A stretch of DNA of 64,000 bases from Gammaproteobacteria bacterium (GCA_018674175.1 JABHAT010000001.1:7787-71786), one strand, 5' to 3'. Shown: positions 8,826 to 14,810, numbered from the stretch's first letter. The notes: a model not told the origin generated them from the letters alone. Made by a program: numbers and translations.

Positions 8826-9014
8826 TTATATAGCAATTGCCTGTGGTATAGTCTCGTGAAATTTTTCAATAATAAATGTTAAATCATCTCCAAAATTTAT
8901 ATATATTAATGTTAATAAAACAATAATTATAAAAAAGAACATTAATATCGTATAGGAAAACATTTTTACAAATATGCCTATAAAGAAAAATAAAGACCTT
9001 ATTATAAAATTCAA
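8826..9014 (-). CDS. Hypothetical small membrane protein (62 aa, two hydrophobic segments)
   Basis: ORF only. It is very hydrophobic and lies 17 bp downstream of the 192-aa ORF on the same strand. No recognisable motif. Confidence 0.35.
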   Translation of the reverse strand: MNFIIRSLFFFIGIFVKMFSYTILMFFFIIIVLLTLIYINFGDDLTFIIEKFHETIPQAIAI

Positions 9015-9031
9015 AATATTTACCTAATGTA

Positions 9032-9610
9032 TTAAATAAAAATATTTGTTTCTGTGGATACTATTATCAATAAAAATATAATAGCTATAGAAAAAAGAAA
9101 AGCGAAAAAAATTCCTCTAGATCTTTCATAAATAAAATCTTTCGTAATTAAAACTTCTATTGAATAATCATCTTCTCTAGAAATTACTTTAACTTCATCA
9201 CTAATTTTTGAAGCTGAAAGTTTTTCATCAAACTTTTTGGATAAATTAATTAACTGTTTCTCTAAAGTATCAATCCTCTTAAGTCTTAGGTTTTCTGCTA
9301 AAGCATACCCTTTTCGTATCGGACCTATTCTTGATTTTGATGGAATTGTATTTATATATTTATCATTTTTTGGAATTAAATTTTTTTCAGAGATTTTTTG
9401 GTCTAATACGGTTAACTTTTCTTCCAGATCTAAAATTTTTTTATTCATCTCATTTTCATTTATATTAGGCATAGAAAATTCTTTGCCTGACTTTGTCATC
9501 ATTGCTAAGTTATGATCTAATTCCTCTAATTTATTATCCAATCCTGATATTGCAGAGATTAAGGATAACTCCGAATCTGAAACTATTTTTGATTTTTCGT
9601 CTTTATTCAC
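9032..9610 (-). CDS. Hypothetical coiled-coil protein with a single C-terminal transmembrane anchor
   Basis: The 192-aa ORF has heptad-like charged segments (LEELDHNL, ILDLEEKLTVLDQKISEK, IDTLEKQLINLSKKFDEKL). It ends in the hydrophobic tail GIFFAFLFSIAIIFLLIIV. It lies downstream of the PepSY-TM gene. Confidence 0.5.
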   Translation of the reverse strand: MNKDEKSKIVSDSELSLISAISGLDNKLEELDHNLAMMTKSGKEFSMPNINENEMNKKILDLEEKLTVLDQKISEKNLIPKNDKYINTIPSKSRIGPIRKGYALAENLRLKRIDTLEKQLINLSKKFDEKLSASKISDEVKVISREDDYSIEVLITKDFIYERSRGIFFAFLFSIAIIFLLIIVSTETNIFI

Positions 9611-9656: not shown

Positions 9657-10271
9657 TTAGAATATTTTTTTATGTCTTAACCAGGAATATGTGCCTGTAA
9701 ATGATAATATTATTAATCCTATTGTAACCAAGTCTACTAATGTTATACCTACAATACCTATTAATCTTCCTGTATGTATATCAACAGCTACTCTTTCATA
9801 AGTAATTGTTTTTCTTAAACTTATATTTTTTATTTTTTTTCTTAGATTTTCTGGTGCAATATTATTTCTTAATTTTATTTTTTTAAGTTTTGAAGTTGAT
9901 ACTTTATCTAAATGCCTCATGTCCAATATTACACCTGCTTCACTGAGCATTATTTCGTGACTCTTATTATATTGAATAATATAGTTGCTGTTCTTTTTAA
10001 AAAAAGCGTTTATTGAATTTATATTATTTATTATTTTATTTTCTTGAAAATAGAGATTACTGTCACATAAAGATATCCATTTATTTTCATGCTTTGTAGA
10101 GGCCACTGTGCATGATTTTATGTTGTATAAATTACTTGCTAGTGAACTTGATATGAATTTTTTTCTTATTCCAAAATCTTCTGCGTGTTGGAGTAATGTT
10201 CCAGTAACTGATAGGATCAATAAAAATATTACTAGCGTAATACCTAGGAATCTATGTATTTTCATAATCAT
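9657..10271 (-). CDS. PepSY-associated TM-helix family membrane protein (FoxB/PiuB-like putative reductase component)
   Basis: The N-terminal IHRFLGITLVIFLLILSVTGTLLQH and C-terminal DIHTGRLIGIVGITLVDLVTIGLIILSFTGTYSWLRH match the PepSY_TM signature, with a His flanking each TM helix. The start is probably MIMKIH (10271) or MKIH (10265), not the track start at 10313. Confidence 0.65.
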   Translation of the reverse strand: MIMKIHRFLGITLVIFLLILSVTGTLLQHAEDFGIRKKFISSSLASNLYNIKSCTVASTKHENKWISLCDSNLYFQENKIINNINSINAFFKKNSNYIIQYNKSHEIMLSEAGVILDMRHLDKVSTSKLKKIKLRNNIAPENLRKKIKNISLRKTITYERVAVDIHTGRLIGIVGITLVDLVTIGLIILSFTGTYSWLRHKKIF

Positions 10272-10350
10272 TTTACAATTATAATTTGTATTATGAAAAA
10301 AAGATACTTTCATGCTATTTTACTATAATTAATCTTATTAAATTTTTATT

Positions 10351-11337
10351 ATGAAATCTAAATATTTTTCTTTACCAATCTTATTATTTACTTCATTCTT
10401 TCTTGTAAGTTGTAATAAAGATAATAAGTCTTATATATCTGGAAGTGCTTTTGGGTCTATTTATCATATTTCAATTAATGATATAAAAGACTTAGATTCT
10501 TTGGCTATTAAGTCAAATATTGATTTTATTTTAAAAAATATAGATAATTCTGCGTCTAATTATAATCCGAATTCTGAAATCTCTAATTTTAATAACTCTA
10601 ATACTAATTCCTATACAATTGTTTCTTCAAATCTTTATAACATAATTTCTGAAGCGAAGAATGCAAGCATTTTAACTGAAGGTTTTTTTGATATAACTAT
10701 TGGAGATATTAAAATCAAGAAGGGTTTTTATGTTAACACCAAGAAGACTTCTTCTAGGGAGAATAATATTTTTACTTATAAAGATATTCAGCTATCAGAA
10801 GATTTTTCCTCAATAAGAAAAAGAAATGGCCTTATTAATGTTGATTTATCTGGAATTGCTAAGGGATACGCTGTTGACATTATTTACAATTATTTAAATA
10901 GCATGAATATATCAGATTTTGTTATTAATATTGGTGGTGAAATAAGAACTAGTAGCATGAATAACACTCAAAAAATATACATTGATGATCCCTCTAAAAA
11001 TAGTCAATACATTGAAGAAATATTCTTGCTCAATAAGTCTATAGCTTCTTCTGGCACTTATATTGATTCTGTTAACTATGAAGGTAAAGAGATATCTCAT
11101 ATTATTAACCCTAAAACTCTTGAGAATATCTCTAACCTTAATATACTAGTTTCTGTTATCCATAATAAATGTTCTATAGCAGATGCACTAGCAACTGGTC
11201 TTCTTGCTATGGATGCTAATGATATTATTAAATATTCTAATATGAATAATATAGCATCAATGCTCGTTATTTTTGATGATAGTAATATAGAAAAATTTTA
11301 TTCTGAAAATTTTATTAAATTTTTATCAGCAGACTAA
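10351..11337 (+). CDS. apbE: FAD:protein FMN transferase (ApbE family lipoprotein)
   Basis: It has a lipobox (FFLVSC) and the ApbE motifs DLSGIAKGYAVD, NIGGEIR, ASSGTY, HIINPKT and ADALATGL. Confidence 0.85.
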   Translation: MKSKYFSLPILLFTSFFLVSCNKDNKSYISGSAFGSIYHISINDIKDLDSLAIKSNIDFILKNIDNSASNYNPNSEISNFNNSNTNSYTIVSSNLYNIISEAKNASILTEGFFDITIGDIKIKKGFYVNTKKTSSRENNIFTYKDIQLSEDFSSIRKRNGLINVDLSGIAKGYAVDIIYNYLNSMNISDFVINIGGEIRTSSMNNTQKIYIDDPSKNSQYIEEIFLLNKSIASSGTYIDSVNYEGKEISHIINPKTLENISNLNILVSVIHNKCSIADALATGLLAMDANDIIKYSNMNNIASMLVIFDDSNIEKFYSENFIKFLSAD

Positions 11338-11342
11338 TTTGA

Positions 11343-11849
11343 TTAAATCTTAGAATATAAATATAGAGAAAGTTTAGAAAGTTTTCTCATAGAGTTAACA
11401 GATAGAGTGGCACCAGAAATATTTGCTATTCTTTTAACAAGTTTTTTACTATCTTTCATGCTGTTTCCCTTAATCTGATTTATAAACATATCGTACTTAA
11501 TTTCGTAACCATAATTTTCTCTGTACACTAAAACTTTTGCATCTGAAATTTTATTGTCTTCAACCATAAAGCCTGTTGTTATAAATTCATGTTTTCCTAT
11601 TGCTTCTAATATGAAACCAACTTTATTTCCAGATTTCCAATATTTAATAACTGGTAAATGATATGTATCTTTCAGTATTTTTTCTACACCATCTTCTATG
11701 TCGTCTTTTAAAATTATATAAGAATGCATAGGTACTTCTGACAAACCTAATGATGATTTTAAAAAATTGTCTTTTAGTAATCTTTCATCAGAGGCGAATG
11801 CCGCTGAGTTAAGTATTAAAAATAAGAGGATTAGTATTTTGATTTTCAT
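11343..11849 (-). CDS. Secreted FMN-binding domain protein, a predicted ApbE flavinylation substrate
   Basis: It has a signal peptide (LILNSAAFASDE). Near the C-terminus, ISGATLSVNS fits the [S/T]GA[S/T] flavinylation motif of NqrC/RnfG-type FMN_bind domains. It is adjacent to apbE. Confidence 0.65.
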   Translation of the reverse strand: MKIKILILLFLILNSAAFASDERLLKDNFLKSSLGLSEVPMHSYIILKDDIEDGVEKILKDTYHLPVIKYWKSGNKVGFILEAIGKHEFITTGFMVEDNKISDAKVLVYRENYGYEIKYDMFINQIKGNSMKDSKKLVKRIANISGATLSVNSMRKLSKLSLYLYSKI

Positions 11850-11876
11850 TGACTGTCTCTAGTTTAAAAAAAGAAT

Positions 11877-12007
11877 GGCTAGTTAACGTCGAAGTTTTAA
11901 ATATTAAGAATGAAAAGAACAAGGAGAATTTCTTCAATTCATCTATATAAAAGTTTAGCTCTTATCTGAGTGGAGGAGAAAGAACTAAACTTTATTGTTA
12001 ACTAGCC
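11877..12007. repeat. 131-bp nested inverted-repeat element between the porin gene and the FMN-binding gene
   Basis: The outer arms are a perfect 11 bp: GGCTAGTTAAC (11877-11887) and GTTAACTAGCC (11997-12007). The inner arms are a perfect 9 bp: AAAGTTTAG (11950-11958) and CTAAACTTT (11985-11993). On the minus, transcribed strand the outer stem is followed by ATTCTTTTTTT. Confidence 0.8.
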
Positions 12008-12048
12008 AAAACACGTCCTAATGTGTATTTATTGCATTATTATTATTC

Positions 12049-13257
12049 TTAGAATTCGTAACCAATTCCCATGTCAAATCCATCAGTATCATTATCATTT
12101 TGAGATTCACTTGAGTAATCTTTATCGTAGTAATTGATTTTGAATACTGTATTTGTACCTTGTGGCCAGTAACTGAAACCTGCTGTTTGTACTGTGTACT
12201 GTCTTGATACTTTTTCACCAGATACGATACTTTGGTTTGCATAGATTCCAATATTACCCATTCTTTTTGATACTTCTAAGAATGTACCTTGATGCTCATC
12301 AAAACCGTTTGTAAAGAATGCACCTGATTCATCTTTACCACCAAAGTCAGCTTGCACATGTAAAGCTCTCACTTCAAAACCGTCACCGAAGTTATAAATA
12401 GCTGATGCTCCCATGATATCTAATTCTTCAATATTATCAGTTGAGACTTGTGTAAAGTCTGATTGATGATTGTAGAAAAGACTTGCTTTAAGACCTGGCA
12501 TACCTGTGTATGTAATACGTGCTGTATAAGCTAAGTCACTTGCGTCAGCATTTGCTGATTTTTGACGTCCACCTCTGATATAACCAGTTGTTGCACCTTT
12601 AAGTCCTTCACCAACCATTGCTTCAAATGTAATTCCGTTTGACATTTTGTGTGAAACCTTCACACCTGCTGCCCACCATGTTGCTGGGAGTAGGTATTTT
12701 TCTACGTCATTTCTTTCTACACCGTAGAATGTTGGAGGCTCATGATTTTCATTCATAATTCCAACTGGTACTAAAATAACACCTGTTTGAATTGATGTTT
12801 GGTCATTTAGATCAACCTCAATATACATTTGCTCTAGCTCAACTTCACCACCGTTAGATCCATCGACAGTATCTTTTACTAAACCATGCTCTAACTCAAA
12901 CTCAGATCTAAATCTGACTTTTTCGTTGTAGTCGTAACCAAAGAATAATACGTATCTGTGCGCATCAACTTTTTTTGTTTTGCCGCCACCGTCTTTCTCA
13001 TGGTCGTTGTAATGTAATTCACCATAACCACCTATGTGAATTTTTTCGAATTTTTTAGCTGCTTTAGCTATTTTGCCCATTGAAGCTTCTTGAACTTCGC
13101 CTTGCATTTTAACAGCTGCTTTCAATTCATTTAATTCAGCTTTTAATTGTTGAATTGTTTCCAAAGCAATATGAACTTCCTCTTCCACATGCTCTAGTGT
13201 GTCTGCAAATGTTACTGGCGTAATTGCTAGTAAACCTGCTAGTACTAATTTTTTCAT
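12049..13257 (-). CDS. Outer-membrane porin-like beta-barrel protein with an N-terminal coiled-coil extension
   Basis: It has a signal peptide (LLAITPVTFA) and a coiled-coil segment (LETIQQLKAELNELKAAVKMQ). The rest shows alternating beta-strand character and ends in the aromatic terminus GIGYEF. G+C is higher than its surroundings, suggesting high expression. Confidence 0.7.
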   Translation of the reverse strand: MKKLVLAGLLAITPVTFADTLEHVEEEVHIALETIQQLKAELNELKAAVKMQGEVQEASMGKIAKAAKKFEKIHIGGYGELHYNDHEKDGGGKTKKVDAHRYVLFFGYDYNEKVRFRSEFELEHGLVKDTVDGSNGGEVELEQMYIEVDLNDQTSIQTGVILVPVGIMNENHEPPTFYGVERNDVEKYLLPATWWAAGVKVSHKMSNGITFEAMVGEGLKGATTGYIRGGRQKSANADASDLAYTARITYTGMPGLKASLFYNHQSDFTQVSTDNIEELDIMGASAIYNFGDGFEVRALHVQADFGGKDESGAFFTNGFDEHQGTFLEVSKRMGNIGIYANQSIVSGEKVSRQYTVQTAGFSYWPQGTNTVFKINYYDKDYSSESQNDNDTDGFDMGIGYEF

Positions 13258-13287: not shown

Positions 13288-13342
13288 GTAAATAGTAATC
13301 GTTCTCATATTCATTTGCAAGTGTAAATAGGAACTATTCTCA
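13288..13342. promoter_or_regulatory. Two direct copies of a 20-bp operator-like motif (GTAAATAGNAANNNTTCTCA) overlapping the porin promoter; weakly Fur-box-like
   Basis: The copies are at 13288-13307 and 13323-13342 and are identical at 16 of 20 positions by hand alignment. On the minus strand they match the 19-bp Fur consensus GATAATGATAATCATTATC at 12 of 19 and 10 of 19 positions. Confidence 0.35.
13292..13320 (-). promoter_or_regulatory. Candidate promoter of the coiled-coil porin gene: -35 TTGCAA (13315-13320), 17-bp spacer, -10 TACTAT (complement of 13292-13297)
   Basis: Hexamers read on the minus strand, about 35-60 nt upstream of the ATG at 13257. Confidence 0.45.
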
Positions 13343-13632
13343 ATAATTTATTAATTGTATTAAAATCAATTACTTAATTTTTTGTAAATTAAATTAATAT
13401 TAGTAAATTACTATTTTTTAAAATTCATTTCTTAATTTTTCCAAATTTTTGAATAAAAATATTTATAGGAATATTGTAAAAAGAGTTTCTACAAAAAAGC
13501 TAAAAATTAATACAGAAATTAATAATAAGAAAAAATACTCTTCAGCCTTTCAACGAAGTTACTTTATATCCAGTATAGTGGGTAAGGTGATATTTAAAAT
13601 AAGAGCGAGAAACATTTTTTTAAGATTACTAA

Positions 13633-14736
13633 TTAATTAGATGCGCATTTATAATCAATAAAATTATTTATTGTTTCATCGATTTTATTTTTAGCTATGA
13701 CTACATCCTTATCTGCTTTATATTCTTCAGCTTGCGTAAAGTGATAAATGAATAAAGGGTTTTTTTCATGCTGTTTTTTTAAACAAAACTTATTTTCACT
13801 TAAGAGTATTCTGTCCCATTTATCTCTTACTATATTCCAGTATCCTTTTGTAGAGTTCCAGTATTTATAGGCAGCACTAAAGTCATAATTTTTTATTTTT
13901 TGATATCTTGCCAAGCCGTACTCAGTTCCAATAAAATTCTTTGGGGTACTGATTTTATCGTTATTTTCTTCCATAACCCATCCCCATGGCAAGATTGTAA
14001 TCTTATTAATTCCTTGAATTAAATCATAGTCTTTACGAACACTATGCTCTCGCCTAGGCAAAGGTCGATTTGTAGTTTTACTAATCCATCTTGAAGCGCC
14101 TCTTTCATGAATCCAAGAACCGTATGATTCATATCTTGGAGAGTCATCAACCTGATAAACTGCCTGACTCCAAGTATTCTTAATATCTTTTTGTTTTTTT
14201 ACGTTCCATTCATTTTTCCCTTGGAATTCTAAAATCTTTCTATCTTCATAAGACCAGTCTTGTCTCCAATGTTTTTGAATATACGGGCCGTTTATTTTAC
14301 CATTTTTATCTCTCATAAACATAACAAGAATATGCTGAAGAGATATGAAATTTTCACTATTTTGAATAATAATTATAGTTTCTGTGCCCCAAGATTTGTA
14401 TGGGTTATCAAGTTTATAATTAGCATCACTACCAAATATTTCCGTAAATTCAAAATTAGCCTTATGATCTCCAGCCATTGCTAATATAGCTAGTCTGTCT
14501 TTATCTTTTGTATTAGTAGCGCTTTGAAGTTTTAGAAAATAATCTGAGCTTTCAATATCTATTTCCGGCTCTAGACCGTCGGTTGTTCCGCCTCTAGACT
14601 CTTGAACATTATGTCTATCTAATAGCCATTTTATTTCACTTTGATTAACTTTTTCTTTAGAAGAACCATAATTATTTTCTTCAGCACTTACCGAATAATT
14701 TAGAGCCATAAAAAATAATAATAAAATTAATCTCAT
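13633..14736 (-). CDS. Hypothetical secreted Trp-rich protein, same strand as and downstream of znuA
   Basis: It has a signal peptide (MRLILLLFFMALNYSVSAEEN). Many Trp residues occur (HWRQDWSYED, WGWVMEEN, YWNSTKGYWNIVRDKWD). I recognise no family. The start is moved to the ATG at 14736; the track start at 14745 is a GTG. Confidence 0.6.
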   Translation of the reverse strand: MRLILLLFFMALNYSVSAEENNYGSSKEKVNQSEIKWLLDRHNVQESRGGTTDGLEPEIDIESSDYFLKLQSATNTKDKDRLAILAMAGDHKANFEFTEIFGSDANYKLDNPYKSWGTETIIIIQNSENFISLQHILVMFMRDKNGKINGPYIQKHWRQDWSYEDRKILEFQGKNEWNVKKQKDIKNTWSQAVYQVDDSPRYESYGSWIHERGASRWISKTTNRPLPRREHSVRKDYDLIQGINKITILPWGWVMEENNDKISTPKNFIGTEYGLARYQKIKNYDFSAAYKYWNSTKGYWNIVRDKWDRILLSENKFCLKKQHEKNPLFIYHFTQAEEYKADKDVVIAKNKIDETINNFIDYKCASN

Positions 14737-14810
14737 ATACAACACTCTAATACATTTTTAATAATTTTACATTGCACAAAATATTAAAATATTAAGAGTA
14801 TTTGTTATAT

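Follow-up and report, generated by a model that had tools for sequence, protein, structure and literature searches.

Four neighbouring genes (positions 9657-13257) in a 64,000-nucleotide stretch of DNA from a gammaproteobacterium (GCA_018674175.1 JABHAT010000001.1:7787-71786; hereafter the window) form a single unit that, judging from its sequence, probably serves a Fur-repressed, TonB-independent and reductive route of iron acquisition, in which a porin would feed a periplasmic ferric reductase. The genes encode an outer-membrane porin, a small secreted protein of the FMN_bind family, the flavin mononucleotide (FMN) transferase ApbE, and a PepSY_TM protein with two transmembrane (TM) helices. 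Their source is an uncultured marine bacterium, whose assembly of 1.08 Mb has a guanine-plus-cytosine (GC) content of about 30% and is 88% complete. An earlier annotation made from the sequence alone, the original prediction, had proposed an iron-linked extracytoplasmic flavoprotein module, dependent on ApbE and equipped with a PepSY_TM partner and a dedicated porin, and this proposal is now supported by hidden Markov model (HMM) searches, gene order, joint presence across genomes and Fur-type sites. It had named a missing FMN_bind match as one of the grounds on which it could fail; the HMM searches matched all four of the protein families it named, and the FMN_bind match is among them.

The case for one unit comes from comparison across genomes. 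When one genome from each species was scanned, the flavoprotein proved to have at least 540 relatives, and the best 80 loci were compared. In nearly all of them, spanning Verrucomicrobiota, Alpha-, Beta- and Gammaproteobacteria, Planctomycetota and Bacteroidota, the genes run on one strand from porin to FMN_bind to PepSY_TM, often followed by apbE. At 73 of these 80 loci the gene immediately upstream of FMN_bind is that of the porin, the contig ending just upstream of FMN_bind in the remaining seven, and the reading frames of FMN_bind and PepSY_TM frequently overlap by a few bases. When the neighbouring open reading frames (ORFs) were clustered, these four were the only widely shared families. 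The order of porin, FMN_bind and PepSY_TM on one strand is also present at 13 fetched loci among 40 relatives, which include other families of the same taxonomic order at protein identities of 22-40%. Of three contigs picked by their porin only, two show this gene order again and the third, with a 58%-identical porin, lacks it. On the evidence of conserved gene order, the porin is thus tied to the unit.

Joint presence and absence lead to the same picture. ApbE and FMN_bind are present together in ten and absent together from seven of the 17 genomes of the window's family (f1). Four members of the genus (G003, G009, G010 and G011), two of them 98% complete, carry rpoD, a small ORF, a coiled-coil gene, a variable DUF6607 gene and znuA in succession, with exactly the four cassette genes gone. 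Gain or loss within the genus affects all four genes together. It is extremely improbable that they are simply neighbours with no functional unit between them.

The enzyme and its presumed substrate are the most readily identified members. The gene for ApbE, an FAD:protein FMN transferase, lies at 10351-11337 on the plus strand, and its product scores 175.9 bits against PF02424 (cut-off 25.6) and has the lipobox LVSC at its N-terminus, in agreement with the lipoprotein originally foreseen. The secreted FMN_bind protein (168 residues; 11343-11849, minus strand) scores 24.2 bits against PF04205 (cut-off 22) and carries a cleavable signal peptide ending in AFA, without a lipobox. Residues 143-151 follow the pattern N-I-[ST]-G-A-T-[LM]-S-V, invariant across 11 orthologues down to 31% identity; in the window the motif reads NISGATLSV (nucleotides 11397-11423, minus strand), and its Thr148 is the predicted acceptor of FMN. 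The family match, the signal peptide and the invariant SGAT together bear out the earlier reading of this protein as a secreted one with a flavinylation motif. ApbE is encoded once in the assembly, this FMN_bind domain is the single one found there, and a search of the assembly for NqrB and RnfD found neither. Further flavinylation targets were considered and rejected on these grounds, and because there is one ApbE, one FMN_bind domain and no NqrB or RnfD, ApbE appears to serve this flavoprotein alone.

The PepSY_TM protein (9657-10271, minus strand; 204 residues counted from M15) scores 39.2 bits against PF03929 (cut-off 28.8). Its ORF extends back to 10313, and M15 (10271) is most likely the start codon because the genus orthologues have 198-203 residues and begin M-[ILV]-[IF]-[KR]-[IL]-H-R. 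Counting from M15, two histidines (H6 and H166) are invariant among 28 diverse sequences and a third, H29, shows at least 90% conservation; R7 and R169 are conserved in a set of 10 sequences. The original prediction had described a two-TM protein of PepSY_TM type with a histidine at both ends of each helix; the family, the two helices and three of the histidines hold, while the histidine of LRHKK varies. A profile of the 28 sequences matches FoxB (PDB 7ABW) with E = 1.9e-7, TM1 aligning with TM1 of FoxB ('LLHRYVG') and TM2 with its TM4 ('IHGGRIAG'). The pairs H6/R7 and H166/R169 fall on 'LLHRYVG' and 'IHGGR', so that positions for a haem-ligand histidine and a propionate-binding arginine are retained in both places. 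FoxB itself has four TM segments and two b-type haems held by conserved histidines, with R10, K373 and R342 contacting the haem propionates (FoxB preprint).

In its AlphaFold2 model (predicted local distance difference test, pLDDT, 93.2), the PepSY_TM protein consists of TM1 (2-28), an eight-stranded periplasmic domain, two short helices and TM2 (173-203), which is fewer than the four or more TM segments of the FoxB type. The protein has no match to a PepSY-domain family in Pfam, and a fold search with the periplasmic domain returned weak matches to beta-propeller blades (BamB-like, E >= 0.014) and none to PepSY domains. By its aligned helices, it is one half of a FoxB-type bundle; since its two helices correspond to TM1 and TM4 of FoxB and the aligned histidine and arginine positions are kept, it probably dimerises. 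A homodimer would supply H6/H6' for a haem on the cytoplasmic side and H166/H166' for one on the periplasmic side. As a further feature of this protein, the periplasmic domain (residues ~50-125) is about 40 residues shorter in the window's genus than in other lineages.

The porin (402 residues; 12049-13257, minus strand) is predicted to comprise a signal peptide, a periplasmic helix of about 50 residues and a 16-strand barrel. It scores 25.8 bits against Porin_4 (PF13609), just below the cut-off of 27. The AlphaFold2 model (pLDDT 81.6; predicted template modelling score 0.76) places helices at residues 18-51 and 58-70 ahead of the 16 strands, the fifth of which is followed by a long loop (163-194). 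The closest folds are classical trimeric porins, and the top query-normalised template modelling score (TM-score), 0.63, belongs to OprP (2o4v); the barrel is presumably trimeric. Model and fold matches together confirm the porin-like outer-membrane protein that had been predicted, with a helix where the prediction had placed an N-terminal periplasmic coiled coil. Homologues at 39-48% identity carry PF07396 (Porin_O_P), for which the window porin has no match at E <= 0.1; a profile search against PDB sequences retrieves OprO and OprP at a weak E of 0.3-0.6. Across 35 sequences, the conserved residues of strands 1-4 and of the loop 163-194 are mostly glutamate and histidine (E80, H82, D98, H100, E119, E121, E123, H124, E140, E142, E170, H172 and E173), and the conserved arginines and lysines are mainly in later strands. 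The Glu/His pattern would fit the handling of cations or metals. A marine metagenome contig labelled TARA (L116, 6001-10675) offers a separate observation: its porin, 58% identical to that of the window, retains the Glu/His set and is followed by proteins of 651 and 376 residues without a Pfam family in place of the flavoprotein genes.

The link to iron starts at the porin promoter, read from the sequence on the minus strand as a -35 hexamer TTGCAA (13315-13320) and a -10 hexamer TACTAT (13292-13297). Two Fur-type boxes on the same strand flank and cover it. The distal one, TTGAGAATAGTTCCTATTTAC (13323-13343), ends 2 nucleotides upstream of the -35 hexamer, and the proximal one, ATGAGAACGATTACTATTTAC (13288-13308), covers the spacer and the -10 hexamer; they are tandem copies of one 21-bp motif, kept in the genus orthologues. 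With a weight matrix built for the operator from these orthologous copies, the eight best sites elsewhere in the genome include ones upstream of iscR, of fbpA, which encodes the binding protein of a ferric ABC transporter, and of a bacterioferritin-like gene. Two other approaches were set aside. The Escherichia coli Fur 19-mer, with six mismatches, is uninformative on the window alone in a genome of 30% GC, where 25-31% of control segments match as well; and a scan for 7-1-7 palindromes was too noisy, the genus matrix and a test of 65 loci outside the genus being used instead. In this test, at 48 of the 65 loci the 300-bp segment around the start of the porin gene was one of the top 10% of segments of its locus for the E. 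coli Fur 19-mer, and it contains a site with at most five mismatches at 34, mostly in genomes of 46-69% GC. Both Fur and Zur are encoded in the genome. It is therefore a predicted Fur site, a Fur-type operator, that overlaps the promoter of the porin. Elsewhere in the genome (G000:C22:10813), the perfect 15-bp palindrome TGAGAATCATTCTCA, the genome's best 7-1-7 Fur-type site, is found some 90 bp ahead of iscR-iscSUA, a sign that Fur may control the isc operon directly.

A second candidate for a regulatory element follows the porin gene. The 199-nucleotide spacer between porin and FMN_bind folds with z = -4.06 and contains a structured RNA element (11866-12007, minus strand) with an outer stem of 11-12 bp (GGCTAGTTAAC...GTTAACTAGCC), nested hairpins and then a T-run. 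The outer stem is preserved in six genus members, with one compensatory and two wobble changes. The element is better conserved in DNA than the flanking genes, occurs once in the genome and has no match in Rfam. In loci outside the genus the spacer is frequently far shorter, at times down to a few bases. A possible role of the element is that of a partial terminator, by which expression of the porin would be balanced against that of the downstream genes.

In the window's genus, apbE is inverted and lies on the opposite strand between FMN_bind and PepSY_TM; therefore the PepSY_TM gene needs a promoter of its own. As to the divergent spacer between PepSY_TM and apbE (10272-10350), all five genus sequences compared share a conserved AT-rich stretch, AATTATAATTTGTATTAT..AAAAAAGATACTT, with the palindrome AATTATAATT; the two genes may share it as a promoter or operator.

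The genes around the cassette in other lineages (neighbours were counted at 74 loci outside the genus) include bacterioferritin at 10 loci, exbB/exbD at 7-8, a divergent fur at two and pstS at one, and at three loci fbpABC follows directly downstream on the same strand. Among the families searched in the window's own assembly, the iron importers seen are FbpABC and one TonB-dependent receptor. Neither FTR1 nor a protein of the size of FeoB was found in the assembly; the FeoB_N matches are ordinary GTPases in frames too short for FeoB, with the exception of one weak, below-threshold match in a frame of 813 residues.

How such a unit would work can be outlined as follows. When iron is scarce, Fur would leave the two boxes on the porin promoter, and the porin, with its long loop of the constriction type, would admit small Fe(III) species to the periplasm. 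The lipoprotein ApbE would link FMN covalently to Thr148 of the FMN_bind protein. A PepSY_TM homodimer, forming a FoxB-like four-helix bundle with two b-type haems, would carry electrons from the cytoplasmic side to the periplasm, where the haems would reduce the flavoprotein and the flavoprotein would in turn reduce Fe(III) to Fe(II), freeing the iron from its ligands. The iron would then pass to an inner-membrane importer, here most likely FbpABC. The domain identities, conserved motifs, gene order, joint presence and absence and Fur-type sites are direct observations; the flavinylation, haem binding, dimerisation, electron path, substrate and hand-over to FbpABC we infer from them. Going further, it is possible, and put forward only tentatively, that the parts make up a physical trans-envelope machine. 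The trimeric porin, cation-selective and metal-binding in this view, would use its own coiled coil to keep the flavinylated protein at the periplasmic mouth of the pore, and electrons would reach the flavoprotein from a minimal PepSY_TM homodimer with two haems. Fe(III) in organic complexes would be reduced on entry and its iron handed to FbpABC without TonB energy. The outer-membrane and reductive step that is still missing from siderophore-independent iron uptake in streamlined marine bacteria would thereby be supplied.

Several points weigh against an iron-reducing route. FbpA-type proteins are known binders of Fe(III), and a reduction ahead of FbpA is puzzling. The boxes in the window match the E. 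coli Fur 19-mer weakly, with six mismatches, against 2-4 in the orthologues L015 and L013, and at the separate promoter required for the PepSY_TM gene the genus matrix finds no scoring Fur box. The dimer and its haems are read from a monomer model and an alignment; the PepSY_TM protein has no NAD-binding domain, and the proposed route names no electron donor to it. Since the assembly is only 88% complete, genes read as absent could have been missed. The tie between porin and flavoprotein is not absolute, one 58%-identical paralogue (P0098) being found in an unrelated context. At the locus of a Gallionellales metagenome-assembled genome (MAG; L078, 6157-12984), pstS-type genes follow porin and FMN_bind, with fur divergent upstream and no PepSY_TM gene detected at the locus. 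A PepSY_TM protein that acts on copper, CrpH, has been described, and in strain OM43 NB0046 a Porin_O_P gene (NB46_00625) stands three locus tags before pstS (NB46_00625-NB46_00631; PMC5120137).

It is conceivable that iron is the signal rather than the substrate, the cassette being an iron-sparing or general periplasmic redox module whose flavin carrier replaces an iron-rich one or feeds some other periplasmic or outer-membrane acceptor. Fur control by itself names no substrate, and flavinylated FMN_bind proteins do serve many extracytosolic redox systems. Such a module would, however, leave unexplained both a dedicated porin as the most constant partner and the recurring fbpABC, bacterioferritin, fur and exbBD neighbours, and the characterised PepSY_TM proteins are metal reductases; we consider it unlikely. 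The metal could also be another one, for instance manganese, or Cu(II) destined for haem-copper oxidase assembly as has been suggested for CrpH, with the porin as the channel of that metal. CrpH does demonstrate that PepSY_TM proteins are not confined to iron, and in the window's genus the cassette sits within a metal-uptake block beside znuA, zur and znuCB. Yet these zinc genes adjoin the cassette in this family only (genera g1 and g3), copper genes do not recur among the neighbours, the Fur-type boxes are conserved across phyla, and the operator motif is common to the promoters of iscR, fbpA and the bacterioferritin-like gene, not to zinc genes. A metal other than iron is thus quite improbable.

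Phosphorus, too, has to be weighed. The porin could be a true phosphate channel of the OprP/OprO type, serving for example the reductive dissolving of Fe(III)-bound phosphate, and it is in this light that PF07396 in distant homologues, the best query-normalised TM-score of OprP, the pstS-type genes of the Gallionellales MAG and the OM43 NB0046 Porin_O_P gene near pstS can be read. A pst neighbour, however, appears at one of the 74 loci outside the genus as against at least 20 with iron genes, the promoter bears Fur-type boxes, the window porin lacks a PF07396 match at E <= 0.1, and its conserved residues in strands 1-4 and the loop are mainly glutamates and histidines rather than those of an arginine ladder. 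We regard this possibility as very improbable. The remaining probability goes to mechanisms other than those listed. Reductive iron acquisition, as set out above, thus stays the preferred reading of the cassette.

The limits of the unit can be drawn from the same comparisons. The locus is bounded on one side by rpoD and on the other by a zinc-uptake block, with DUF6607 (13633-14745, minus strand; 214 bits), which lies downstream of znuA, coming first and then znuA, zur and znuCB. Between rpoD and the cassette are a small ORF of 62 residues next to rpoD (8826-9014, minus strand) and a coiled-coil protein of 192 residues with a hydrophobic tail (9032-9610, minus strand). The original prediction had added the coiled-coil protein to the pairing, and this tie fails: the protein persists in the four genus members that lack the cassette and, among the best 80 loci, is confined to the window's genus. 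Because it is retained where the four genes are gone, it stands outside the unit, and both it and the 62-residue ORF were rejected as members. Whether or not the cassette is there, all genus members examined have both genes beside rpoD, and neither product has a family assignment. DUF6607, znuA, zur and znuCB were likewise rejected, as they flank the cassette in this family only and DUF6607 is variable. Within the genus, DUF6607 was not found in L015, L110 and L111, and a literature search on DUF6607 found no paper that mentions the family.

Iron limits bacterial growth across much of the ocean, and there is little understanding of how it crosses the outer membrane in small, streamlined cells that possess few TonB-dependent receptors or none. 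Physiological studies suggest that reduction precedes uptake, and we know of no genes that have been assigned to this step. For it, the porin, flavoprotein and haem protein together make a concrete candidate, one that is present in hundreds of species and kept even in a 1.1-Mb genome. Should the proposal prove true, it would give ApbE flavinylation a new physiological role, reveal a minimal two-TM form of the FoxB-type cytochrome and provide a gene marker for metagenomic studies of iron, and the related species with and without the cassette would make a natural comparison.

Among known systems, a likeness in principle is offered by MnoP of Bradyrhizobium japonicum, an outer-membrane Mn2+ channel regulated by Mur and proposed to let free metal enter without TonB. 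By description it resembles the window porin as an outer-membrane channel under a metal regulator of the Fur family; it differs in that it serves manganese and acts alone, with no redox module coupled to it. The phosphate-selective porins OprP and OprO of Pseudomonas aeruginosa (PDB 2O4V and 4RJW) share the 16-strand barrel with the window porin and are linked to it through distant homologues with PF07396. The window porin, by contrast, is about 12% identical to them, has no PF07396 match of its own, possesses an extra N-terminal helix and has Fur-type boxes where OprP and OprO are under Pho control. Their arginine ladder contrasts with its acidic and histidine residues in strands 1-4 and the long loop, which argues, though not decisively, against a ladder in the window porin. 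With NqrC and RnfG, the classical substrates of ApbE, the FMN_bind protein shares the fold family and the SGAT flavinylation threonine, but it is a free secreted protein rather than a subunit of NQR or RNF.

FoxB of P. aeruginosa and the related PepSY_TM ferrisiderophore reductases FpvG, FhuB, FsrB, HiuB and VciB have TM motifs in common with the PepSY_TM protein, H-R-x-x-G at the start of TM1 and D-x-H-x-G-R before the last TM segment. In FoxB these two regions hold two b-type haems for the reduction of periplasmic Fe(III) (FoxB preprint). All characterised PepSY_TM proteins have at least four TM segments (2026 survey); they also have large periplasmic domains (PepSY in FoxB), and the siderophore reductases among them act behind TonB-dependent siderophore receptors, whereas the window protein is a single two-TM unit with a separate flavoprotein partner and a porin. 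Judging from its sequence and model, it is not a member of the FoxB family in the strict sense, since it has neither four TM segments nor a PepSY domain, and by analogy a dimer of it probably acts in the manner of FoxB.

The cassette falls under the operational definition that Meheust et al. 2021 (PMC8238504) give for 'PepSY-like' flavinylation-associated clusters, in which a protein must match PF03929 or PF16357: PF03929 lies within the cluster, as do ApbE and a flavinylation substrate with a signal peptide. Clusters of this class are predicted to transfer electrons across the inner membrane for iron reduction and assimilation, some of them reportedly under Fur repression (PMC8238504). The published class is described with three TM helices, with DUF2271 in 2833 of 3220 clusters and with DUF4198; the outer-membrane partners noted for it are TonB-linked, 231 clusters having a TonB-family Pfam match, read by the authors as siderophore receptors (PMC8238504). 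Neither DUF2271 nor DUF4198 appears in the Pfam results for eight neighbouring window proteins. No porin is named in the body text of either flavinylation survey (Meheust et al. 2021 eLife PMC8238504; Huang et al. 2024 mSystems PMC11334425), neither PF07396 nor PF13609 was found in the 2021 eLife supplements, the text of which may be incomplete, and full-text searches also came back blank, all of which agrees with the earlier remark that the pairing with a porin could not be placed in a described system. Like the class, the window cassette sets a PF03929 membrane protein beside ApbE and a secreted flavinylation substrate; unlike it, the cassette uses an FMN_bind substrate, two TM helices and a porin as its constant outer-membrane partner. 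Overall, it would represent a version of the published, so far only predicted, 'PepSY-like' kind that is distinguished by its two-TM membrane protein, its FMN_bind flavoprotein and its porin.

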